Source of the DNA: Nannocystales bacterium
Lineage (GTDB): Bacteria > Myxococcota_A > Polyangia > Nannocystales > Nannocystaceae
Assembly (NCBI GenBank): GCA_050633305.1
Contig: JBOEGF010000007.1
Location: 32,001 to 96,000, forward strand
Direction of reading: 5' to 3'
DNA: 64,000 nt
In this document: in pieces, positions 1,931 through 32,155 of the stretch
How the letters are laid out: each line of letters opens with the position of its first letter
Numbering within the stretch: position 1 is the first letter of the stretch
Translations under genes and position numbers: made by a program
Notes under the pieces: generated by a model
Seen by the model: only the letters and a program-made list of their open reading frames with translations
The model's database searches: none
Told to the model about the DNA's origin: nothing

Positions 1931-3142
<1,212 letters not shown>

Positions 3143-10441: not shown

Positions 10442-12913
10442 TCACTCGTCGCCGGCGGGGAACCCAAGCAGGGTTACATCTCCGTGGTGCCCTGGGATGC
10501 GGTCTTCGAGCAGCTTGGGAATGCTGTCGTAGCCTTTGCGCGCGATCCGTTTTTGGTGGAACGGACCCCATGACACGCTGTGGTGCCAGTGCCCCGTCTG
10601 CTTGAAGCCGCCCCGGGAGTTGGTCTGTAGCACCACGCTTTGCCCGTCCATCGGCAGGCCGAGGACGTTGGCCCGGTAGGCGTCCGTGACGGTTCCTCCC
10701 CACGAGGAGGGGGCGTTGGATGTGTAGTAGACGCGCACGGGAATACCGAGCTTGTCCGCGGCTGCGCCGACCTTCGCCAACGCGCCGCCATCGCGGAGCA
10801 AGTCGCCACCGACGACGCGCAGTCGCCCCTGCTGGACCAGGGTACGGATGTACGCGTAGTTCTTGTCGTGCGCCAGCCACCCGTAGTCGCCGGCTTTGGG
10901 CTTGGCCTTTCGCTTCTCTTGGTAGTAGGGCGCGAGCTTGTCCGCGGTGGCCATGAATCCGGCCCGCTGCCGCTTCCGCATCGTGTCGTCGCTGAACGCG
11001 GCATCGATCACCTTGAGCGCCTTGGCCCGACCAGCGGGTGCGAAGAAGGCGATGAAGTCGTCTGCCGTCTCGGCCGCTTCGATCAGCGCGAAGACTCGGC
11101 GGTGGTTGTTCACGACCCGGGGGTCGTAGTCCATCACCCACGCCCACTGTGATCGCGCGGCGGCAATGGTGCTGTAGTTCTGGTCGGAACCAATGCCCAC
11201 GTAGCCCCCAGCCAGGTTCTCCACGTAGTCGTTCCACAGGTAGGAGCGTGGCTCGTTGGTCATGATGTAGGGGAAGGGATCGCGACACGTGGTCTCGGAC
11301 CGCCCCCCTTTGGCCTGCGCGTCGCCCCAGGTCTCGCGGACTTTGGCACCGCAGATTCGCTTGTCCTCGATCGGGTCGTCCTCGACAGCCTCAACGATCT
11401 CGAGCGAAGCTTTGGATGGGGGCTCGAGGGTGGCCGGCACGTGCCGCTGCGCGGTGAGTTGCGCGGGCGGGTAGGTGGTGAGGTAGGGATTCTCCGTGGC
11501 GCACCGCATCCCCAGCCGGTGACTTCCAGTCTTCAGCTTCTCCAGCCGTCGGTGCGAACCGCGGGTTCGATGCTTGGGCCAGTACCAGCTCCCTCCGCGA
11601 AGGATGCGCTGTCCCTTGCACGGAAACGCGCCGTCGCACAGTCCCTGGGGGTCGAGTCCGTTGCACGCCTCGCCGCACGCTTCGACGCTCTCGATCCCCG
11701 CGCTGGATGTCCACTCGTAGCCGTTGCCCGCCATCTCGTGCAGGCCATAATGCCCTGCGGGGAACGAGCCGACCGGTTGGGTCGCGTGTTCGTTGCAGTC
11801 CCAGCGGTGGGCCTTTCCCGCGTAGGGCTTGCAGCCGTAGGGCGCACATTCTCGGAAGACCGCTCGTTCGCAGGTCGGCTCCTCGTCGCCCCACGGGTAG
11901 AGTTCGCCGTCGGGTCCGCGGGCTGCTTTCTCCCACTCCCACTCGGTCGGCAGGCGCTTGCCCGCCCAGGCGCAGTAGCCCCGTGCACGGTGCCAGTCCA
12001 TCGGCATCGCGGGCTGATCGTCGGCGACGAACGGCTTCATGATGTTCTGGGTCCGGTTGATCCGGACCTTGCACGCCCCCGCTTCGTGACACGCGTCGTA
12101 CTGCGCGTTGGTCACTTCGTAGCGGTCGACGTAGACGGTGCTGACAATGAGCTCCCGCTGGGGCGCCTCTTCGGGAAGGCCGTCGTCGTACCCCACAATC
12201 GCCGGACCGCCCGGGATGCACACCATGTCCTTAGGGGCGGGGACACAGGGGGCGAACGCGAACGAGAGCACGGCCGTCGCGCCGGCTTTGGTCACCGCAG
12301 TCGATGCTTCGAGCAGAGTTTTCGCGGTTGCAGAGTCGAGCAGGTCGATCGCGACGGTGGGGCCGGCGCTCGAAAGGGCGCTCGCCATGGCCTCCAGGGT
12401 GTCGCCCGCGTCGGTGCGGGCGTCGTCGCGGTACAGGACCCACCCCGAGCCACGAGCACGGAGGATCGGCGAGGCGTCGTCGGCCGCGGGTCGGTTCACC
12501 ACGACGGCGTAAGCATCGAGCTTGAGCTGGATGCCGGTGCCAGGTGCGATCGTGCTCGCCCACACCTGCCGAAGTGCGCCCACCGTGCTGTCCGCCTCGG
12601 CACTGAGGATTCGTTCACGCGCGCCCGCGAAGGCGGTCTGCAGGTCGGGATGGTCGTAGACCGCTTGGTACGCGTCGTCTACGCGACCGGGTGCCTCGAT
12701 GGGGCGCAGGGGCACAGGGGGCTCCTCACCGATTCGAAGCTCGTTGCCCTGGAGTTTGAGCGTCACCACGTCCGGACGCACAATCGCGGGGGAGCTCTGA
12801 GAGTCCGCCTCTTGCGGGGTTGGGGCGGGGAGCTCGGGCTCGACCGCAGGCCGAGGCGCGGGCTCCTGGCAGGCGGCAGCGAGGGCGCAGAGCAGCAGCG
12901 AGGCGCGACGCAT
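10442..12913 (-). CDS. Lipoprotein with FGE-sulfatase (SUMF1/EgtB/PvdO) domain and an additional C-terminal domain
   Basis: LAAA-C lipobox; EVTNAQY, RLPTEWEWEKAARG, MAGNGYEW, RGGSW, GMRCA; C-terminal GGYVGIGSDQNY domain. Confidence 0.85.
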   Translation of the reverse strand: MRRASLLLCALAAACQEPAPRPAVEPELPAPTPQEADSQSSPAIVRPDVVTLKLQGNELRIGEEPPVPLRPIEAPGRVDDAYQAVYDHPDLQTAFAGARERILSAEADSTVGALRQVWASTIAPGTGIQLKLDAYAVVVNRPAADDASPILRARGSGWVLYRDDARTDAGDTLEAMASALSSAGPTVAIDLLDSATAKTLLEASTAVTKAGATAVLSFAFAPCVPAPKDMVCIPGGPAIVGYDDGLPEEAPQRELIVSTVYVDRYEVTNAQYDACHEAGACKVRINRTQNIMKPFVADDQPAMPMDWHRARGYCAWAGKRLPTEWEWEKAARGPDGELYPWGDEEPTCERAVFRECAPYGCKPYAGKAHRWDCNEHATQPVGSFPAGHYGLHEMAGNGYEWTSSAGIESVEACGEACNGLDPQGLCDGAFPCKGQRILRGGSWYWPKHRTRGSHRRLEKLKTGSHRLGMRCATENPYLTTYPPAQLTAQRHVPATLEPPSKASLEIVEAVEDDPIEDKRICGAKVRETWGDAQAKGGRSETTCRDPFPYIMTNEPRSYLWNDYVENLAGGYVGIGSDQNYSTIAAARSQWAWVMDYDPRVVNNHRRVFALIEAAETADDFIAFFAPAGRAKALKVIDAAFSDDTMRKRQRAGFMATADKLAPYYQEKRKAKPKAGDYGWLAHDKNYAYIRTLVQQGRLRVVGGDLLRDGGALAKVGAAADKLGIPVRVYYTSNAPSSWGGTVTDAYRANVLGLPMDGQSVVLQTNSRGGFKQTGHWHHSVSWGPFHQKRIARKGYDSIPKLLEDRIPGHHGDVTLLGFPAGDE

Positions 12914-12943: not shown

Positions 12944-13714
12944 CTACTCGAACTTGGAGAAATCGGGGGCGCGCTTCTGGAAGAAGGCCTGCATGGCCTC
13001 CGCGGCTTCAGGTGATCGCAGTCGCTCCAGGAAGAGCTCCCCCTCGCGGTCCATGGAGGCATGCAGCATGTCGCGGTGGGCCCGGCTGATCAGGGACTTG
13101 GTCAGGCGTACCGATGCTGGGGGCAGGGCGGCGACCTTGAGGGCGACACTTCGGACCCGCTCGTCGAGGTCGCCGGGGGAGAGGACCTCGTTGACCAGTC
13201 CGATGTTCAACGCCGTCGCGGCATCGAAGGCCTCCCCGAGCAGCAGTAGCTCGGTGGCTTTCACGCGCCCGGCAAGTCGAGGCAGCAGGTAGCTCGAGCC
13301 AGCTTCGGGACACAAGCCCAGGGGGACGAAGGGCATCTTGAACTTCGAGCGGTCCGAGCAGTAGACGAGGTCGCAGTGCATCAGCAGCGTGGTGCCGATG
13401 CCCACGGCGACGCCGTTGACGGCGGCGATCACCGGTGTGCTCAGCTGTGGGAGCAGACCGAGAACTCTGCCGACCGGAGAGTCCATGGTGCTGGGCGGAT
13501 CTCGCATGAAGTCGCCGAGGTCATTCCCCGCGGTGAAGCTCCCACCCTCGCCTCGGATGACGACCGCCCGTACCGCGGAGTCTTTTTCGCCCTGCTGCAG
13601 CTGGCTGAACAGCGCGTCGTACATCGCCATCGTCAGCGCGTTCTTCTTCTCCGGGCGGTTGAACGAGATCGTGAGCACGTTCTCGGACAGCTCGTGGGTG
13701 AGCACTTCAGGCAT
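12944..13714 (-). CDS. Enoyl-CoA hydratase/isomerase
   Basis: NRPEKKNAL, FTAGND, AVNGVAVGIG, LGLCPEAGSS. Confidence 0.93.
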   Translation of the reverse strand: MPEVLTHELSENVLTISFNRPEKKNALTMAMYDALFSQLQQGEKDSAVRAVVIRGEGGSFTAGNDLGDFMRDPPSTMDSPVGRVLGLLPQLSTPVIAAVNGVAVGIGTTLLMHCDLVYCSDRSKFKMPFVPLGLCPEAGSSYLLPRLAGRVKATELLLLGEAFDAATALNIGLVNEVLSPGDLDERVRSVALKVAALPPASVRLTKSLISRAHRDMLHASMDREGELFLERLRSPEAAEAMQAFFQKRAPDFSKFE

Positions 13715-13844
13715 GGCCACGCAGGCTACCTGGGTTTTGGCCTGCAAAAGCCCCTGGCGGGCCTGCGCCACCTTCTGGGCGTGGTAGGCGCGGTCTCGGC
13801 GGCCGAATCCAACGCGGGAGACCGACCGCGGTAGAGTTGTGGAA

Positions 13845-15551
13845 GTGACGCAAGGCGCCGAGTCCTCCGCATCGAAGCCCCCGATTGTCGTCGAGCCTCC
13901 TGCGGGTGGGTTCGACCGACCCGGCATGCGGACGCTGGTGAAAGAATCCGGTCTGGCCAAGGTGATGCACGCGTACGTGCGCGCGCCGTTCGGACACACG
14001 GTCACGACGCTCGGGGCACTCGAGGCCGCGACGGAGTCGTGCGACCTAGCCCTTGCGGTCGGCGAGGCGATGCACGCTGCCCTGCTCGAAGACATCGCCC
14101 GCAGCGGCAGCTTGGCGATCCCAGAGCCAACCCTCGACCAGCGCTTGTTCATCGGCGCCTTCGCATTGACGGCGCTCGCGGATGAACTCTGCCCGCGGCT
14201 CGCCGAGATCGCGCCTGTGCCCGACCCCTCGTCGGACCTCGAAGCGGAGGGTCTGGAGACGCTGCTCGAGCACGCTCCGCGCGCGTTGTTGGAGCGTGTG
14301 TTGAAGATGGCGGCGCGATACGTCGAGGTGCAGCAAAAACGTCACGCGGGCGCAGGTGGGTCGGATTTGCTCGAGCGCCAAGCCTGGGTGGTCACGACGA
14401 TGCATGCGTTCGTTGTGCAGCTACGAGGGGCGGTGGAGCGCCTGACCCACGGCGGCCGACTTCGTCCTTTTGGTGTCGCCTTGGCACAGCGGATGGTGAC
14501 CGTCGGCACTCGTCGATACGAGGGGTTTCGGGCCCGACCGGTCGGAGACCCCGTCACCGACCTCAAGCCGATCGCGGTCGAGGACATCGTGGGCAACACC
14601 GATTACGTGGAGGCGGCGCTCAAGTTGGCGCGCGATGTGGCCGCGTACGACCTTCAGGCGGGCAGCAGCGCGAAGCGCATCAACCCGGTGTTGTTTGCGT
14701 TGGGTCGGCCCGGCTGCGGGAAAACCATCACCGCCCACGCGATCGGCAACTACTTTCTCGACTACTGCCGTCAGCGGGACATCCCCGCCCGGTTCCGGGT
14801 CATTCGTCGCACCGACTGGGCCAGCTCGTACCAGAACGCGAGCGCGTCCTCGTTGATCAAGATCTTCAAGGAGGAGGTCTATGGCTTCGATGGTGTGTGC
14901 GGCGTGTACTGGGCCGACATCGATACCGCGTTCGCGAGTCGAAGCAGTGGCGACCTCCGCATGGAGGAGAAGAACAACCTCGGCGCGGTGTTCGGCATCT
15001 TTGATGGGACCCTCATCCCGAAGGATGGAAAGTGGTTCATGATGTGCGACGCCAACTTCATGCAGATGGACGAAGCGACCACCTCGCGGATCGCCCAGAA
15101 CCCGTTTCGTGTACGCGGTCCCACGACGGCCGAGGACTACGTCCGCTTGCTGCGCGACGTCTTGCTGAGGGAGGAAACCGCCAACATCACGGCGAGCCCC
15201 GAGCAGTGGCTCGAGATCGGGGCGCAGTGTGTTCAGGCAGATCTCTCCGGGCGCGCGGTCGAGTCTGTGTCGGGGAACGTGCGGGCTGCGATCCAGGACT
15301 TCGAGTACCCGGACCACTACTTCGCCGCCGACTTCGAGACACGCCAGCGGTTGCTGAGCGAGTTGTCGGTCAAGGTCGATGCCGACGCCGTTCTCAAGGA
15401 GGTCAGTGACTACGTCGAGTTCCAGAAGGAGGCCGAAGAGTCGGCGGCCGCAAGTCGGTTCGAGCAAGAGGTGTCGCAGATGGTGGAGCGGCTCAACGCT
15501 GGCCGAGCGGCGGCGGAGCGCTTGGCCGCATCGGAGTCGACCTCGGATTGA
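13845..15551 (+). CDS. AAA+ family ATPase with atypical Walker B
   Basis: Walker A GRPGCGKT; Walker B position reads GVYWADID. Start could be GTG 13839 or 13845. Confidence 0.85.
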   Translation: MTQGAESSASKPPIVVEPPAGGFDRPGMRTLVKESGLAKVMHAYVRAPFGHTVTTLGALEAATESCDLALAVGEAMHAALLEDIARSGSLAIPEPTLDQRLFIGAFALTALADELCPRLAEIAPVPDPSSDLEAEGLETLLEHAPRALLERVLKMAARYVEVQQKRHAGAGGSDLLERQAWVVTTMHAFVVQLRGAVERLTHGGRLRPFGVALAQRMVTVGTRRYEGFRARPVGDPVTDLKPIAVEDIVGNTDYVEAALKLARDVAAYDLQAGSSAKRINPVLFALGRPGCGKTITAHAIGNYFLDYCRQRDIPARFRVIRRTDWASSYQNASASSLIKIFKEEVYGFDGVCGVYWADIDTAFASRSSGDLRMEEKNNLGAVFGIFDGTLIPKDGKWFMMCDANFMQMDEATTSRIAQNPFRVRGPTTAEDYVRLLRDVLLREETANITASPEQWLEIGAQCVQADLSGRAVESVSGNVRAAIQDFEYPDHYFAADFETRQRLLSELSVKVDADAVLKEVSDYVEFQKEAEESAAASRFEQEVSQMVERLNAGRAAAERLAASESTSD

Positions 15552-17258: not shown

Positions 17259-18704
17259 TCATGGATTCGCGCGACGGTTCGCCACCAACAGCAGCGCCAG
17301 CCCCAACGCCGTGCTTCCGAGAATCGCCCACGCGGCGGATACGGCCGGGTTCGGGAGCACTCCGCTCAGATGCAGGCTGAAGTGCAGCCCCAAGGCGAAG
17401 GAGGACGCGAGCGCGACGGGGACGACCGGGAGCGCGTCCCGTCGGAGCACGCCGAAGACCAAGGGCACGAACGAGGCCGCGGCGAGGCCATAGACGCCCT
17501 TCTGGGCGAAGAGGCCGATCAAGGCCGGCGGATCGATCGCGAGCATGAACGCGATGAGGCCGATGATGACCACAGCCCACCGCGACGCCGCGAGTGCCTT
17601 CTGGGGGTCGGCGTCACGTCTGCGTCCTCGGAGGTACAAGTCATGGGTCACCATGGCCGAGACCGCGACCAAGATGCCGTCGAGTGTCGACATGCCCGCG
17701 GCGAGCAACGCGACGAACACCGCTGAGGTCAGGCCCTCGGCCAGCATCCCGCTGCCGAAGGCCGTGCTCACGTATGCGGTCACAATGTGGTCCTGACCAC
17801 CCTGCGGGACTTCGATCCCATCGAGCCGAGCGTAGAAGCCGACGAACAGGCACAGGCTAAACAGTGCTCCGACGCCAAACGTCGTGAGCAGGAACGTGCG
17901 CAAGTCCCTGTCCGAGCGCAGGTAGAGGACCTTGGTAAGGACATGGGGCTGGAGCATCAGCGCGAACGTGACCACGAAGCCGCTGACGAACACGGCGAAC
18001 ACGTCGCCATACAAGACGCTGTCGGGGTTGGCCACGGCGGCATAGCTGGGGTCGACGGCTCGCAGGCGGGAGAGGAAGCCGCCGTCCGAGATGTGCTCCC
18101 ACCCAGTGGCAAACAGGGCCACCGCGACAGCCATCATGAGGAACGCCTGGGCCGCATTGGTATAAGCGTGGGCGTAGGTGCCGCCCAACAACACGTACCC
18201 GAACACGACGACCACCACGGCGATCAGCGCAGGTACATGGCCCAACCCGGTGAGCTGCGTGAGGAGGATGGCGCAGCCGAACAGAATCAGCACGATGAAG
18301 GCGATGCTCAGCAGGTTGATGATCGCGAAGAACAGTCCGAACGCATCGCTGCCGTATCGTTGGCGAATCCAGTCTGGAATCGTCAGGGCGCCGATCTCAT
18401 CTCCGAACCGGCGGAAACCTCTGCTCACCGCGATCAAGCCGACGATCACCCCCGCTTGGGCAGCGACGCCATAGTGGAGGAACGCGGAGAGCCCGTCGGT
18501 GTAGACGAACCCCGGGTTGATGACGAAGGTCGCGGTGGAGGCGATCGATGAGGCCATGGCAACCCCGACGAGCACGGGGTTCATGTCGCGGTTGCCCACG
18601 GCGAAGCTCGACAAGGACGTTGTCTTCTTCATGCCCGCGACCCCAAGCCACGCGAGCAGTCCGAGGTACGCCACGAGGAGAACGGTGGTGACGAGGGTGC
18701 TCAT
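17259..18704 (-). CDS. Sodium:solute symporter (SSS family)
   Basis: Polytopic; FAVGNR, ASTATF, TIPDWIRQRYG, AAGMSTLDG. Confidence 0.9.
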   Translation of the reverse strand: MSTLVTTVLLVAYLGLLAWLGVAGMKKTTSLSSFAVGNRDMNPVLVGVAMASSIASTATFVINPGFVYTDGLSAFLHYGVAAQAGVIVGLIAVSRGFRRFGDEIGALTIPDWIRQRYGSDAFGLFFAIINLLSIAFIVLILFGCAILLTQLTGLGHVPALIAVVVVVFGYVLLGGTYAHAYTNAAQAFLMMAVAVALFATGWEHISDGGFLSRLRAVDPSYAAVANPDSVLYGDVFAVFVSGFVVTFALMLQPHVLTKVLYLRSDRDLRTFLLTTFGVGALFSLCLFVGFYARLDGIEVPQGGQDHIVTAYVSTAFGSGMLAEGLTSAVFVALLAAGMSTLDGILVAVSAMVTHDLYLRGRRRDADPQKALAASRWAVVIIGLIAFMLAIDPPALIGLFAQKGVYGLAAASFVPLVFGVLRRDALPVVPVALASSFALGLHFSLHLSGVLPNPAVSAAWAILGSTALGLALLLVANRRANP

Positions 18705-18706
18705 GG

Positions 18707-19609
18707 TCAGGCTCCAATCGGCGCGGCGGTTGTGCTGGGCAGGACTCGGTCGATGAACTCCAACACCGTGGTGTTCCAGGCGTCCGCGGCCTCGAACTGG
18801 GCGATGTGCCCTGCGTTTCGCAACACGGCCAGCTCGGTGTCAGGCATGCGAGGTAGCTCTGCGCGCACCAGTTCGGCCGCGGTGCCTCGGTGAAGCACGG
18901 GGTTGGGGATCAGCTTGTCGTCGTCCCCGAACAGGATCAGGGTCGGCGCCCCGAGGCGGCCGAGGTCGGCATGAACGGGCTCGTTGAGCATGCCGCGAAC
19001 GCTGTGCTTGATGACGTGGCAGTAGGCTCGGAACTTGCGAGCACTTCGAATCGCGATGCGGTCCGCCACGAGAAAACCCGCGTCGTCGGGCATGTTGTGA
19101 AAGTTCGCCTCCTGTCGGGCCCGGATCGTCGACTTCGTGGCGTAGCGTGTGAATCCAGGCGTGACCAGGGAGGCGATGAACGCGGACTCCGCAGGCCCGA
19201 ACGTCTCGATCCCGGCGGGGGAGGAGAGGACCAGCGCCGAGACACGCTCGGGCGCCTGGAGGGCGAGGTGCATGCTCACCTGGGCGCCCATCGAATGTCC
19301 GACGAGGATGGCTTGGGGGACTTGAAGCTTGTCCAGCAGTCCGCGGACCGTGTCGGCGAAGAACCGCATCGAGTAGCTCGCGCGTGGCTTGTCCGACTTT
19401 CCGTACCCCGGAAGGTCGAGTGCGATCACGCGGTGTCGCTGTGCCAACACCTCGATGTTCTTGCCCCACATCGGGATGTAGCCGCTGAGCCCATGAATGA
19501 GCACCAGTGGCACATCGCCGCTGCCCTCGTCGGCGTACGCGATCCGTAGGCCGTGGACGTCGGCCCATGCGACGTCGAGAGGGTAGTGGAGGTCCAGGAA
19601 CGATTGCAT
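18707..19609 (-). CDS. Alpha/beta hydrolase
   Basis: LIHG, DLPGYGKS, GHSMG nucleophile, DKLI, AGH. Confidence 0.92.
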   Translation of the reverse strand: MQSFLDLHYPLDVAWADVHGLRIAYADEGSGDVPLVLIHGLSGYIPMWGKNIEVLAQRHRVIALDLPGYGKSDKPRASYSMRFFADTVRGLLDKLQVPQAILVGHSMGAQVSMHLALQAPERVSALVLSSPAGIETFGPAESAFIASLVTPGFTRYATKSTIRARQEANFHNMPDDAGFLVADRIAIRSARKFRAYCHVIKHSVRGMLNEPVHADLGRLGAPTLILFGDDDKLIPNPVLHRGTAAELVRAELPRMPDTELAVLRNAGHIAQFEAADAWNTTVLEFIDRVLPSTTAAPIGA

Positions 19610-19626
19610 GGGTCAGATCCTCGGAC

Positions 19627-20661
19627 TCAGATGCGGCGTTTCGTGACAGGGAGGACCGTGGGGGCTGTGTTCCAACGCCAGGCCGTGCAGCCCATCGAAA
19701 GCCCGCCTCCGGTGGCGCAGAACACGACGAGCGCATCATCGTCCAACGGCGTTTTCGCAATCGCGTCGTCGAAGGCCGCGGGGATACAGGCGCTGCCGAG
19801 GTACCCCCACTTGTCCATCACCATGTGCGTTCGATCCATCGGGACATGCAGACGGTCCATCACGGTTTCGATCGTACGCGCGTTGAGTTGTGTGAAGATG
19901 AACAGCGAGACGTCCTCGACCGCACTTCCGGACTTCGCGAGCGTGTCGGCGATCAGTGTGGGCCAGCGATCCGCGTTGAACGTCGCCGGAAATTTTCGGA
20001 CGAAGCGGACAGTGGGTGGACCGGACTGGGCGACGTTGGTTGCGGTTGCGGGGCGTGCGGTGCCGCCGGTGTAGATGCCCAATGCGTCGTGGAACTGACC
20101 GTCGGCTTCGAGCTTGCCTCCGAGGTACCCGGGCTCCTGAGTCGCGCCCACCACGACGGCGCCCGCTCCATCGGCGAACAACGTCGCGGTCTTCTTGTCG
20201 TCCCAGTCGAGGTACCGCGTCATCCCGTATCCGCCGCACACGAGCACTCGGTTGATGTCGGTGTCGGTGGCGATGTAACGCGCGGCGATGTCGAGGGCGC
20301 TGACCCACCCCGCACAGGCGGCATTCACGTCGAAGACCCCAGCGTTCGGAGCTCCGAGTTTGTGCTGAACCACGGAGGCCGTCGAGGGGCTGAGGTAGTC
20401 CGGGGTGTCCGTCGCGACAATGATCAGATCGAGGTCGGTGGCGGAAACGTCGGCCCGTTCGAGCGCTTGCTTTGCAGCGTGGACAACTAAGTCTGAGGTC
20501 ACCTCGTCGTGCGCCATCACGTGGCGGGACTCGATTCCGACGTTTTGGACGAGCCAGTCGCTGACGGGTTTTTCGAAACGAGCGTCGAAGTAGGCGTTGT
20601 CGATACGCCGGGCTGGGATGTACCGCCCACTGCTGAGGATCTGCGCGTTGCGTCCAAACAT
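19627..20661 (-). CDS. KAS III (FabH-like) family protein with non-canonical catalytic residues
   Basis: GIESRH, TDTPDY, NAACAGW (Cys), LFADGAGA; FTQLN and WGYLGSAC where HQAN and GNTS are canonical. Confidence 0.88.
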   Translation of the reverse strand: MFGRNAQILSSGRYIPARRIDNAYFDARFEKPVSDWLVQNVGIESRHVMAHDEVTSDLVVHAAKQALERADVSATDLDLIIVATDTPDYLSPSTASVVQHKLGAPNAGVFDVNAACAGWVSALDIAARYIATDTDINRVLVCGGYGMTRYLDWDDKKTATLFADGAGAVVVGATQEPGYLGGKLEADGQFHDALGIYTGGTARPATATNVAQSGPPTVRFVRKFPATFNADRWPTLIADTLAKSGSAVEDVSLFIFTQLNARTIETVMDRLHVPMDRTHMVMDKWGYLGSACIPAAFDDAIAKTPLDDDALVVFCATGGGLSMGCTAWRWNTAPTVLPVTKRRI

Positions 20662-20685
20662 GACGAGTGGTTCATGTTTCATATA

Positions 20686-20803
20686 TGTTGCATCGCAGCA
20701 AGCCATTTCCTCGAACTCCGCACATCAGCAGCCGGACCACGAGTTCTTTCGAGATCTGGATGCCCGCTGTGTTGCGCTGCAGCAGGTCTATTGCCGTGCT
20801 GCA
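20686..20803. promoter_or_regulatory. Three TRTTGC-N3-GCWGCA boxes, PhaR-like operator
   Basis: tgttgcatcgcagca 20686-20700, tgttgcgctgcagca 20770-20784, tattgccgtgctgca 20789-20803. Confidence 0.6.
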
Positions 20804-21882
20804 GCGACGAGCAGTCGGTGGAAGTGGTGCACACCGCGCTCGTGCTCGGGGGCGTACCGACCGCTTCCGTAGGCCCGGCTGCGCACACCACGCGCACAGG
20901 CTTCGACCACGGCTTCGTCCTCGTACTCGACCTGGTCGAGTCCCGTGCCGACCCCTGTATCTGAAGCGTCCGGATCCCAGACGTATCGCCGGTACACCAC
21001 CTTGGTTCGGTGCGGGCCTCGAGGAAGCACGACGTTGACGGAGAGTCCCCAGGGGTAGACGTTGAGCATCGTGCCGGGGAACAGCCAGACGTAGTACGCC
21101 GCCACGCGCAGTCCATGGTCGGGGTGAGACTTGGGCAGGTCGAAGCACGGCTCGCCAGGTTGGGCCGAGGCGAGCTGTACAGAACCGTGGGCGAAGAGGT
21201 CGGTGCGGTAGAGCTTCCAATCGAGCGCCGCGTTGAGTCCGGGGTGCACGTAGGGGATGTGAAAGCCCTCGAGGTAGTTGTCGCAGTACAGCGCCCAGTT
21301 GGCGTTCATCTCGTAGTGGGGGCTTCGGGCCGCATCGAGGGTCATGACGTTGGGGACGACCGCTTCGAGGCGGTCGCGAACGGGGCCGAACAAGGTATCG
21401 AAAGAGACGTTCGGGTCCAGGCTGGCGAACAGCAGGCTCCTCCACCGATGGACGGTCGCGGCGCGAAGGCTGTCCGTCGGTTCCGGGAAGCTCGGGCTGT
21501 TCTCGAAGCCGGGGGCTGAGTGCAGCGCGCCGTTGAGCTCGAAGCGGCGTCCATGATAACGACAGCGAATCCCGGTCGCCGTACACGGTCGGTCGACCAT
21601 GACGAACCCCCGGTGCGTGCAGACGTTGGACACGCATCGCAGGGTGTCGCCGTCGTGGGTCAGCAGCAGCGGCTCATCCAGGGTTCCGGGCAAGAGCGTC
21701 CAGGGCACCTGCTCACCCTCCGCGGACGGGACGGTGTCCAGAGGGTACACGTGCCAGGTGCGCGGGAAGACGCGTTGCTGCAGTCGGGCGAACCAGTCTC
21801 CATCACCGTAGACCCAGCCTGGAAGTGTGCGCGCCCGCTCGATCTGGGCGTCGATCTTCAGCGCATCGAGGTCGTGGACCAT
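20788..21882 (-). CDS. Rieske non-heme iron oxygenase alpha subunit (choline monooxygenase-like)
   Basis: CTH...CRYH Rieske ligands; NW..YCDNYLEGFHIPYVH iron centre; EYED. Confidence 0.9.
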   Translation of the reverse strand: MVHDLDALKIDAQIERARTLPGWVYGDGDWFARLQQRVFPRTWHVYPLDTVPSAEGEQVPWTLLPGTLDEPLLLTHDGDTLRCVSNVCTHRGFVMVDRPCTATGIRCRYHGRRFELNGALHSAPGFENSPSFPEPTDSLRAATVHRWRSLLFASLDPNVSFDTLFGPVRDRLEAVVPNVMTLDAARSPHYEMNANWALYCDNYLEGFHIPYVHPGLNAALDWKLYRTDLFAHGSVQLASAQPGEPCFDLPKSHPDHGLRVAAYYVWLFPGTMLNVYPWGLSVNVVLPRGPHRTKVVYRRYVWDPDASDTGVGTGLDQVEYEDEAVVEACARGVRSRAYGSGRYAPEHERGVHHFHRLLVAAARQ

Positions 21883-21996
21883 GGACACGACGTACCACGG
21901 GTCGTCTGGCCGCGACGGCACCAGGCACCAGGGGTGCTGGATGCTGGCCGCCTTCGTCAGCGCGGGACGCTCTCGACGCTGGAGGCGTCGGGCCGT

Positions 21997-30958: not shown

Positions 30959-32155
30959 TCACGGGGCGGCGGCAGCCGACAGCGTCGAGGGAGAATCGGG
31001 CCTTCGCATGGACCCCACGACGGCTCGGCGGGTTTCGCCATACTTCTCGTGCCATTGTGCCGGCGTTTCGAACGCGAGGACGGTGACCGAGTCTCGGTGT
31101 CCATCCCGCACGAAGTGAACGTGTCGGGCCATCTGGACCCCGTTGCGCTCCAGCGAATACACCACCGTCTGGACGTCCTCGCCATCGGAGCGGGATTCTT
31201 CTCGCAGATCGTTGGCGCGGCCGCCGGGGACGAGCGCCCGCAGCCTGTTGTTCTCGTACCAATGCTCGGCGTCCTGCGCATGCTCGCTCGGCACGGGATC
31301 GGCCGTGAGGACCACCATCCCCCCGGCGGTGGAGAATTCCCGTTCCCCAAGGGGGCCGTACCGAGGCCGCCAGCGGGATGGGACCTGGAGCGTGACCCCG
31401 TTGTCGAGGGCCACGGCCCGGCGCTTGTCTCCTCCGACGAGGTTCGGCGCCACAGCGATGGTTGCGATGCAGAACACGCCCGCGGCCACGAATCGCACCG
31501 GCCAATGCCGCTTGCGAGGCAGCCAGGGATAGTTGGGGAGGGCGATCGGGAGGAGCATGCCGCCGATGAGACCTGCGCAGAGCCCACCGAGGTGGCTCGC
31601 GTGGTCGACCCCGGGGTTCCGCATCCCAACGACAAAGAGGATGACCAAAAAAGGCAGTACCCAGATGCCGAAGTACCGCTGCACGCTCGCGGCCAGGCGA
31701 TCGTGGTAGCGCAGGCCGAACGTGACGGCGGCGCCGAGCACCCCGAAGACGATCCCGCTGGAGCCGGCCGAGACTTGGGGTGTTCCCAGAAGGCTCGCTA
31801 GGGAGGATGCGACGGCGGAAAAGAGGATGAGGGCCGCGTAGTCGCTGCGGCGGGAAGCGTGTTCGAGCGCGCCGCCGACGGTAAAGAGGAACACGAGGTT
31901 GAACACCAAGTGCAGCACCGACGTGTGCACGAAGTGGCAGCTGAGCAGTCGCCACGACTCCCCCACATCTGCGACCAGCGGCGTGCTTCGGCCCCCGAGG
32001 GCGATGACGTACAGCGCACTCCCGGTGTCCACGGTGCTCGCGCCGTGCTGCAGGATGTCGAGCAGCCACGCGCTGGCGTAGGCCACGGTCGCAATCGCGC
32101 AGACGACGAACGTGAGCCACGGAAAGCCGCGACGGTCCTGAGAAACACGCACCAC
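30959..32155 (-). CDS. Rhomboid intramembrane serine protease with soluble C-terminal domain
   Basis: WRLL, HLVFN, GSSG catalytic Ser, HLGG catalytic His. Start estimated. Confidence 0.88.
   Translation of the reverse strand: MVRVSQDRRGFPWLTFVVCAIATVAYASAWLLDILQHGASTVDTGSALYVIALGGRSTPLVADVGESWRLLSCHFVHTSVLHLVFNLVFLFTVGGALEHASRRSDYAALILFSAVASSLASLLGTPQVSAGSSGIVFGVLGAAVTFGLRYHDRLAASVQRYFGIWVLPFLVILFVVGMRNPGVDHASHLGGLCAGLIGGMLLPIALPNYPWLPRKRHWPVRFVAAGVFCIATIAVAPNLVGGDKRRAVALDNGVTLQVPSRWRPRYGPLGEREFSTAGGMVVLTADPVPSEHAQDAEHWYENNRLRALVPGGRANDLREESRSDGEDVQTVVYSLERNGVQMARHVHFVRDGHRDSVTVLAFETPAQWHEKYGETRRAVVGSMRRPDSPSTLSAAAAP

Follow-up and report, generated by a model that had tools for sequence, protein, structure and literature searches.

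The canonical route of poly(3-hydroxybutyrate) (PHB) catabolism combines a depolymerase, an oligomer hydrolase, the 3-hydroxybutyrate (3HB) dehydrogenase BdhA, acetoacetyl-coenzyme A (CoA) synthetase and thiolase. CoA-dependent cleavage of PHB to 3HB-CoA also has a precedent (reviewed in PMC7147478), and the predator Bdellovibrio hydrolyses and consumes the polyhydroxyalkanoates (PHA) of its prey with PhaZBd (PMC4834554). On the side of the enzyme folds, CerJ and ChlB3 use a Cys-His-Asp triad on the scaffold of β-ketoacyl-acyl carrier protein synthase III (KAS III), and CerJ transfers to a hydroxyl without decarboxylation (PMC9573744). Here, we analysed a 64,000-nucleotide stretch of a Nannocystales genome (contig JBOEGF010000007.1, positions 32,001 to 96,000; hereafter the window), which carries three closely packed minus-strand open reading frames (ORFs) for a KAS III-fold enzyme, an α/β hydrolase and a sodium:solute symporter (SSS). 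The gaps of 17 and 2 nt, on which the initial annotation had based its operon, agree with the ORF coordinates (Table 1). The first of the three gene products, labelled FabH but with Thr and Tyr in place of the FabH His and Asn (Cys-Thr-Tyr, CTY), probably represents a genuine, novel form of acyltransferase built on the KAS III fold, in what is probably a pathway of PHB scavenging, and it probably helps predatory or scavenging bacteria to feed PHB fragments into metabolism by an undescribed route. That the operon module handles PHA-derived hydroxyacids from PHB scavenging is, in our view, very likely. In the literature we found no functional description of the CTY family or its regulon; subscription journals were thinly covered, and a printed assay is possible.

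The fold of the CTY enzyme is that of its superfamily: the AlphaFold model (predicted local distance difference test score 89.4) superposes on E. coli FabH (1ebl) with a Z-score of 43.3 and 2.0 Å over 317 residues, and Foldseek and VIA searches returned, near the top, KAS III and no other family, a result that excludes nothing. The motifs NAACAG, FTQLN and WGYLGSAC are all present, and in HMMER alignments to three solved FabH structures FTQLN falls on PHQAN and KWGYLGSAC on (DH/KY/RY)GNTSAAS. Counted from the ATG at 20661, this retains Cys116 and puts Thr257 at the FabH His position and Tyr287 at the FabH Asn position, which bears out the altered triad of the initial annotation; the Thr and Tyr column assignments come from the sequence alignment. 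Further key residues are Asp85, Tyr145, Cys292 and Thr317. Conservation of the triad, which had been suggested as a check, is nearly complete among the 120 best homologues listed (Cys 120, Thr 120, Tyr 119 and one Phe), and the active-site Cys is also kept in 92 of 92 distant CTY members. The Tyr287 count in the metagenome set was not used, as Tyr was built into the search pattern. Asp85, an addition to the original observation, is found in at least 118 of the 120 close and 90 of the 92 distant members, and in none of 111 Cys-His-Asn relatives, one of which has Glu. Cys315, two residues ahead of Thr317, is invariant in the 120 close homologues and not in the distant ones. Since the His and Asn are absent, malonyl decarboxylation by the CTY enzyme is very unlikely.

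The 150 best representatives at 50% identity comprise 23 with the Tyr, 111 with Cys-His-Asn and 16 that are partial or other. The window enzyme does not reach the cut-off of the fabH model TIGR00747 (225.5 vs 292.1 bits) and just passes that of the broad PRK09352 subfamily (252.7 vs 249 bits). In a quick tree of 51 rows (19 CTY, 26 Cys-His-Asn, 6 PRK06840), the CTY rows make up one side of a branch with an SH-aLRT (Shimodaira-Hasegawa-like approximate likelihood ratio test) value of 91, by which a separate CTY branch is neither established nor rejected. The closest named records are from Nannocystaceae (92%), and named carriers belong to the Myxococcota, Chloroflexota, Ignavibacteria, Bacteroidota, Acidobacteriota and Caldisericia and include Rhodothermus and Thermochlorobacter. 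In some loci the CTY gene is doubled, either as a tandem pair or within a single operon (L160, L166, L168, L176, L179, L180 and L120 11615-19223); both copies retain Cys, Asp, Thr and Tyr, and a heterodimer or a split specificity is conceivable.

One link to PHB comes from the sequence upstream of the operon. The PhaR-like boxes of the initial annotation both agree with the published consensus TGCRNYGCASMA, which is that of Bradyrhizobium PhaR (PMC6201568). The genome (11 Mb) contains 162 matches to this consensus, with five clusters within 250 bp; four of these amount to a single palindrome that matches on either strand, which leaves the cluster in the window as the sole one with two separate sites. 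Other matches precede the phaR gene of this genome (PF07879, 94.5 bits, contig C10) and a phasin-like ORF, and a box stands at the equivalent place in the loci L017, L018 and L019. PhaR may control the operon. A further exact match lies at position 31463 of the window.

A second motif, likewise not part of the initial annotation, overlaps the KAS start and recurs upstream of tetR and short-chain dehydrogenase/reductase (SDR) genes in Myxococcaceae loci. It is a probable TetR-family operator, to which a TetR protein would bind. A position weight matrix built from eight sites of other genomes gave four hits of at least 20 bits in this genome, compared with 0-1 in 12 column shuffles. The best precedes an extracellular short-chain-length PHA depolymerase (NF050058, 295 vs cut-off 150), the second-best an operon of a Lipase_2-like protein and a barrel, and the third-best the KAS gene of the window, while the fourth (C14:218848, L101 near 4849, 20.5 bits) is flanked by two uncharacterised ORFs for secreted proteins. 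A site of lower score stands before another gene of the PHB depolymerase family (TIGR01840, 155.7 vs 107.85), likewise in genome G004, and genome G040 has the motif ahead of an NF050058 depolymerase gene (305 bits). Two hits on contig C18 (15.6 and 16.9 bits) do not rise above the background of the shuffles (at 15.5 bits, 15 real hits against 0-18) and count only because G004 carries the motif at the same genes. An exact search of 28 chosen Myxococcaceae genomes, 24 with and 4 without the KAS gene, found 31 matches in 14 genomes and none with the reversed control. A depolymerase match lies within 350 bp of 6 of them and within 4 kb of 2 more, 16 are located no more than 12 kb from a KAS gene, and 7 fall elsewhere. 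The pattern was refined once the window site had been seen, and the matches at KAS genes are partly built in, which does not apply to those at depolymerases.

The two strongest sites belong to one run on contig C40 (L100 1608-6030, minus strand), where the genes for an extracellular PHB depolymerase, for a lipoprotein resembling Lipase_2 and for a probable outer-membrane barrel follow one another as a second arm of the proposed regulon. For the two secreted Lipase_2-like proteins, a sequence search of the PDB gave no match at E 1 and the Atlas only Lipase_2 clusters; a presumed resemblance to PhaZ7 was not confirmed. In G040, an exact operator match precedes a Zn-dependent dehydrogenase with a weak crotonyl-CoA reductase match (L110 288-1523, minus strand, 53.8 bits).

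Besides the shared operator, the distribution of the genes points to PHB. In a sample of 151 Myxococcaceae genomes, 76 with and 75 without the KAS gene, an extracellular depolymerase is found in 74 of the KAS-positive and 27 of the KAS-negative genomes, a co-occurrence that is inflated, to the disadvantage of our reading, because kin are not independent and small metagenome-assembled genomes lack both genes. A 3HB dehydrogenase passes its cut-off in one of five genomes examined and not in the present one; an SDR on contig C32 with 220 bits to BdhA was rejected as the dehydrogenase of the module, as it sits in an unrelated cluster.

Sinorhizobium meliloti, one prey of Myxococcus xanthus, stores PHB. 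The CTY protein of M. xanthus DK1622 (ABF92307, P0275, 331 aa) has the CTY motifs, is 58% identical to the window enzyme and falls into the same 90% cluster as Pyxidicoccus CTY proteins; judged by its length (996 nt) and the gene order from tetR to hydrolase, it is likely MXAN_0215. On S. meliloti, MXAN_0214-0221 (7 genes) are up-regulated with log2 fold changes of 1.7-3.7, the SDR MXAN_0211 with 2.0-2.3 and the PHB depolymerase MXAN_0016 with 1.3-2.4 (PMC9548883). MXAN_0222, a Zn-binding dehydrogenase, also rises on prey, at a late stage. We set the data on E. coli prey aside as evidence, and they lend our reading no help: the '#N/A' entries do not discriminate, because two β-oxidation thiolases are also #N/A. 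In its main text, the expression study mentions PHB only with one depolymerase, and its authors suggest iso-fatty-acid synthesis for MXAN_0215 (PMC9548883). The same source cites, second-hand, a disruption of MXAN_0215 that left the lipids unchanged.

One alternative takes the CTY enzyme for a normal FabH with an unusual choice of starter, or else for a catabolic enzyme that transfers acyl groups from another, non-PHA ester or lipid of the prey. In its favour, the closest solved structures are all FabH/KAS III, the PRK09352 cut-off is just passed, iso-fatty-acid synthesis has been suggested for MXAN_0215, and Lipase_2-like genes belong to the regulon. We nevertheless consider it improbable, since His and Asn are replaced in all 120 homologues, the genome encodes two canonical Cys-His-Asn FabHs, the MXAN_0215 knockout is cited as lacking a lipid change and the operator precedes PHB depolymerases. 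The replacement of His and Asn by Thr and Tyr, the two FabHs and the lipid result thus favour the non-FabH chemistry that the initial annotation had proposed, and its PHA link gains from the shared operator, the co-occurrence, physical linkage and the induction on prey. Of these, the operator, the co-occurrence counts and the expression link to M. xanthus are new here.

For the neighbourhood of the CTY genes, which the initial annotation had asked to compare, the recurrent partners in different phyla are a CoA ligase, a hydrolase, an importer and an SDR or MaoC. We inspected 80 of at least 559 CTY relatives in GTDB genomes and 80 of 575 metagenome loci; neighbours were counted by a seed-based assignment, and short contigs lower the counts. 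The 80 genome loci include a ligase in 64, a hydrolase in 62, an SDR in 32, an SSS/MFS (major facilitator superfamily)/Liv transporter in 26, a thiolase in 22, a PRK06840 KAS in 21, TetR in 20, an outer-membrane barrel in 14, an SSS and PhaC in 8 each and PhaR in 5, and the metagenome loci a ligase in 65, a hydrolase in 49, an SDR in 37 and an SSS in 19. Over 165 loci, 96 have a CoA ligase gene immediately behind the KAS gene, and 33 contain MaoC. In loci of at least 9 kb, a ligase or CoA-transferase is present in 91 of 106, an SDR or MaoC in 76 and a thiolase gene of its own in 29. One adjacent ligase scores best with a model of the long-chain type (PRK06187, 493 vs 476), which suits oligomers. 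The genes of the module thus cover import, hydrolysis and activation with CoA as well as steps typical of (R)-3-hydroxyacyl-CoA, often with a thiolase of its own. A tblastn search with two acyl carrier proteins found none in the 165 loci, but was insensitive and also missed other such genes of the own genome.

Single loci illustrate this arrangement. A Chondrinema plasmid carries fabG-KAS-SSS-ligase-hydrolase-TonB receptor, a Chloroflexota plasmid has a CoA-transferase in the place of the ligase together with thiolase and OB-fold genes, and L119 joins tetR, KAS, MFS, lipoprotein, barrel, hydrolase and depolymerase in one run. In the present genome, a cluster of the Paraliomyxa type is split across three contigs: C10 holds phaR, SDR, phaE-like, ligase and phaC-like genes, C18 the hydrolase, a barrel remnant and tetR, and the window the KAS-hydrolase-SSS part. 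The remnant (C18 650200-650700; L099 6216-6700) lies before the hydrolase and corresponds to no more than a short stretch of the Paraliomyxa outer-membrane barrel; G004 has full lipoprotein and barrel ORFs, and the barrel of the present genome has possibly decayed or been deleted. In Chloroflexota loci such as L086 (11732-13462), an archaeal-type thiolase with a DUF35/OB-fold partner adjoins the KAS genes, an arrangement reminiscent of the thiolase/DUF35/HMG-CoA (3-hydroxy-3-methylglutaryl-CoA) synthase complex.

The gene order in some of these loci would also fit a biosynthetic role in the PHA cycle of the cell itself, with a reverse transfer that makes 3HB-oligomer-CoA primers for PhaC or, as a variant, shuttles acyl groups from CoA to granule proteins or back. 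In L022, L023, L029, L038 and L050, a phaE-ligase-phaC run leads straight into the KAS gene, and the 5 PhaR genes among the 80 loci and the PhaR boxes of the window point the same way. A PhaC-like gene is present in 48 of the 76 KAS-positive Myxococcaceae genomes (28 of 75 KAS-negative), which leaves 28 KAS-positive genomes without a match, and the neighbours are mostly importers and hydrolases; we therefore regard such a role as very improbable.

From the genomics, we infer that the operon is the intracellular part of a PHB-scavenging regulon. Secreted depolymerases would cut the PHB of prey, dead cells or own granules to (R)-3-hydroxybutyrate and short oligomers, which outer-membrane barrels and the SSS would import; PhaR and a TetR repressor encoded elsewhere (C18) would control the genes. 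As a non-decarboxylating acyltransferase, the CTY enzyme could then cleave the ester linkage within a 3HB oligomer, in most cases once an acyl-CoA ligase has loaded the oligomer onto CoA: Cys116 would accept the distal 3HB unit with Asp85 as acid/base, and CoA would free it as (R)-3HB-CoA, so that one activation yields two CoA esters. The product would be converted by a FabG/PhaB-like SDR or by a MaoC hydratase and then by an ordinary thiolase, so that 3HB dehydrogenase is bypassed, or else PhaC would re-polymerise it. Substrate, reaction and ester-thiolysis chemistry are all drawn from context here; thiolysis of 3HB oligomer(-CoA) esters to (R)-3HB-CoA is a quite possible reaction, short of a probable one. 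We rank it first because the splitting of a CoA-bound oligomer, which is needed as its 3-hydroxyl is blocked, has no other candidate enzyme.

Several observations speak against ester thiolysis or the PHB assignment. The window operon lacks a CoA ligase and has a probably cytoplasmic hydrolase, which could simply hydrolyse the oligomers. The best match to the MXAN_0216-type ligase is 34% identical in this genome and likewise in G051. In L123, an acetyl-CoA hydrolase/transferase replaces the ligase, and this family acts on short acids and is not known to act on oligomers. Transfer from ester to thioester is uphill, and no His at either FabH position could activate the Cys as in CerJ/ChlB3. Finally, most loci have no PHA-specific gene within 7-8 kb (PhaC 8 of 80, depolymerase 2 of 80).

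The main rival keeps the PHB regulon and makes the CTY enzyme a non-canonical acetoacetyl-CoA thiolase: the hydrolase would release 3HB, the ligase form (R)-3HB-CoA, the SDR oxidise it to acetoacetyl-CoA and the CTY enzyme yield two acetyl-CoA, with the Thr257 and Tyr287 hydroxyls as enolate oxyanion hole. Such a role would complete a tidy Myxococcaceae pathway, in which the operator is also found at the SDR gene and MXAN_0211 shares the induction; SDRs are present in 32 of 80 genome and 37 of 80 metagenome loci, and the hydrolase and monomer-sized importer of the window fit as well. It would be redundant, given the separate thiolase in 29 of the 106 long loci, while 17 of these have MaoC without SDR. 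With eight standard thiolase hits in this genome and Ser/Thr (Thr317) at what we take to be the position of the thiolase acid/base Cys, we judge this explanation unlikely.

Asp85 suggests another chemistry, comparable to HMG-CoA synthase, in which it removes or adds a C2 proton on the acyl-enzyme; the oligomer-CoA would undergo β-elimination to crotonyl-CoA and 3HB, or 3HB-CoA retro-aldol cleavage to acetyl-CoA and acetaldehyde. The residue aligns with the GTES Glu of the HMG-CoA-synthase-like protein of the genome, a protein that does not itself reach the TIGR01835 cut-off; in HMG-CoA synthase, this Glu serves as catalytic base. The same column holds Glu in 19 of 19 PRK06840-type KAS proteins from CTY loci, and some loci include crotonases and Zn-dependent reductases. 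MaoC, in 33 of the 165 loci, already gives crotonyl-CoA from (R)-3HB-CoA, no aldehyde dehydrogenase was recognised among the annotated recurrent neighbour clusters (not all are annotated), and HMG-CoA synthase presumably retains His and Asn. This chemistry appears rather improbable to us.

The first ATG of the KAS ORF (19627-20706), at 20706, is probably not the true start, because residues 1-8 would then be encoded across PhaR box 2; as CTY homologues mostly have 343-351 aa, the start sites at 20661 or 20682 are favoured. The hydrolase has Ser106 in GHSMG, Asp230/231 and His268 and is probably cytoplasmic, since no signal peptide is evident. Among the 25 NCBIfam matches listed no family reached its cut-off (i_nPHAscl 76.8 vs 300), and the scores stay below those of the intracellular PHB depolymerases (NF050089 76.8 vs 300; TIGR02240 60.1 vs 250.6). 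The protein is a candidate 3HB-oligomer hydrolase. The SSS reached no specific cut-off in the NCBIfam search and is a candidate importer of 3HB or short oligomers.

Table 1. Features of the CTY operon and its upstream region (positions in the window)
Feature	Position	Strand	Size or sequence	Remarks
CTY KAS III-fold enzyme gene	19627..20661	-	344 aa from ATG 20661	PF08545 + PF08541; frame open to 20706; further in-frame ATG 20682
α/β hydrolase gene	18707..19609	-	300 aa	PF00561
Sodium:solute symporter (SSS) gene	17259..18704	-	481 aa	PF00474
Probable TetR-family operator	20660..20681	-	TGAAACATGAACCACTCGTCAT	motif common to PHB depolymerase genes; binding protein inferred
PhaR box 2	20689..20700	+	TGCATCGCAGCA	exact match to consensus TGCRNYGCASMA
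PhaR box 1	20773..20784	+	TGCGCTGCAGCA	exact match to TGCRNYGCASMA; directly past Rieske gene stop

The gene that ends at PhaR box 1 (20788-21921, minus strand; PF00355 + PF00848) encodes the alpha subunit of a Rieske ring-hydroxylating oxygenase, for which an NCBIfam search gave no family at its cut-off. We excluded it from the module because L019 and L020 have the module without it. The window also includes a standard thiolase (1931-3142, minus strand) 14 kb and an enoyl-CoA hydratase (12944-14152, minus strand) 3 kb from the operon, and a DUF7790 fused to an FGE-sulfatase-like domain (10442-12913, minus strand).

If the proposed role is true, many proteins annotated as FabH, among the at least 559 relatives in GTDB genomes, are mis-annotated catabolic enzymes, and Cys, Asp, Thr and Tyr are a new catalytic set for the thiolase superfamily. 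Splitting the 3HB oligomer-CoA into two 3HB-CoA would then halve the activation cost. Microbes store PHB in abundance, and it is also a bioplastic; at stake is how degraders without 3HB dehydrogenase assimilate its fragments. For M. xanthus, a testable job emerges for MXAN_0214-0222, an operon that is induced in predation and has hitherto been assigned to the synthesis or uptake of lipids. More tentatively still than the reaction itself, we propose the CTY enzyme as the signature of an unrecognised, BdhA-independent PHB assimilation across many phyla, an 'ester thiolase' that is switched on when Myxococcus eats PHB-rich prey.

With FabH/KAS III (E. coli 1ebl, N. meningitidis 4ryb, B. subtilis FabHA 8vd9), the CTY enzyme has in common the fold (Z 43-44, about 2 Å), the active-site Cys and, in the tunnel for CoA, the Gln-x-Asn-x-Arg stretch. 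It differs by about 30-34% identity, Thr for His, Tyr for Asn, Ser/Thr for Phe304, the extra Asp85 and Tyr145, and a catabolic gene context. The analogy to ChlB6 and CerJ drawn in the initial annotation stands for the function, as CerJ, ChlB3 and ChlB6 use the KAS III fold for acyl transfer via a Cys acyl-enzyme, as we propose for the CTY enzyme. It does not extend to the active site: CerJ and ChlB3 are tailoring enzymes of natural products with Cys-His-Asp, whereas the CTY enzyme has no His at either FabH position and continues with GYLGSAC. ChlB3 is a weak sequence match (35.6 bits), and CerJ was compared by its published triad.

HMG-CoA synthase of the MvaS type has an acid in the same column of the sequence alignment (ATDT in CTY vs GTES), but the CTY enzyme has Asp instead of Glu, lacks His and Asn and scores 39.6 vs 360 bits with TIGR01835. 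The PRK06840 (NF005308) '3-oxoacyl-ACP synthase' has an acid at position 85 in common with the CTY enzyme and, in two proteins aligned, also Tyr at 145. In the quick tree it falls on a separate branch, it has His at the Asn position, and the window enzyme reaches 151 vs its cut-off of 315. Members of this family with Glu at the position of the HMG-CoA synthase base stand beside CTY genes in L075 (3683-4723), L036 (3793-4806) and 19 more loci, and probably represent a second mis-annotated catabolic KAS family. Relative to thiolase (TIGR01930, 22.9 vs 240.6), the CTY enzyme has Thr/Ser317 at what we take to be the acid/base Cys (CxG) and Tyr287 at the presumed GHP His.

Among the PHA-degrading systems, the Bdellovibrio account covers, in its available text, the depolymerase and neither fabH nor fadD (PMC4834554). 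The canonical PHB catabolism has the same presumed substrate and uses BdhA, which is mostly not found in the five genomes examined here. Thiolysis also has a counterpart in C. necator, where a PhaZa1-dependent cleavage of granules with CoA to 3HB-CoA is reported (PMC7147478), whereas the step proposed for the CTY enzyme would act on imported fragments and be carried out by a thiolase-fold enzyme.

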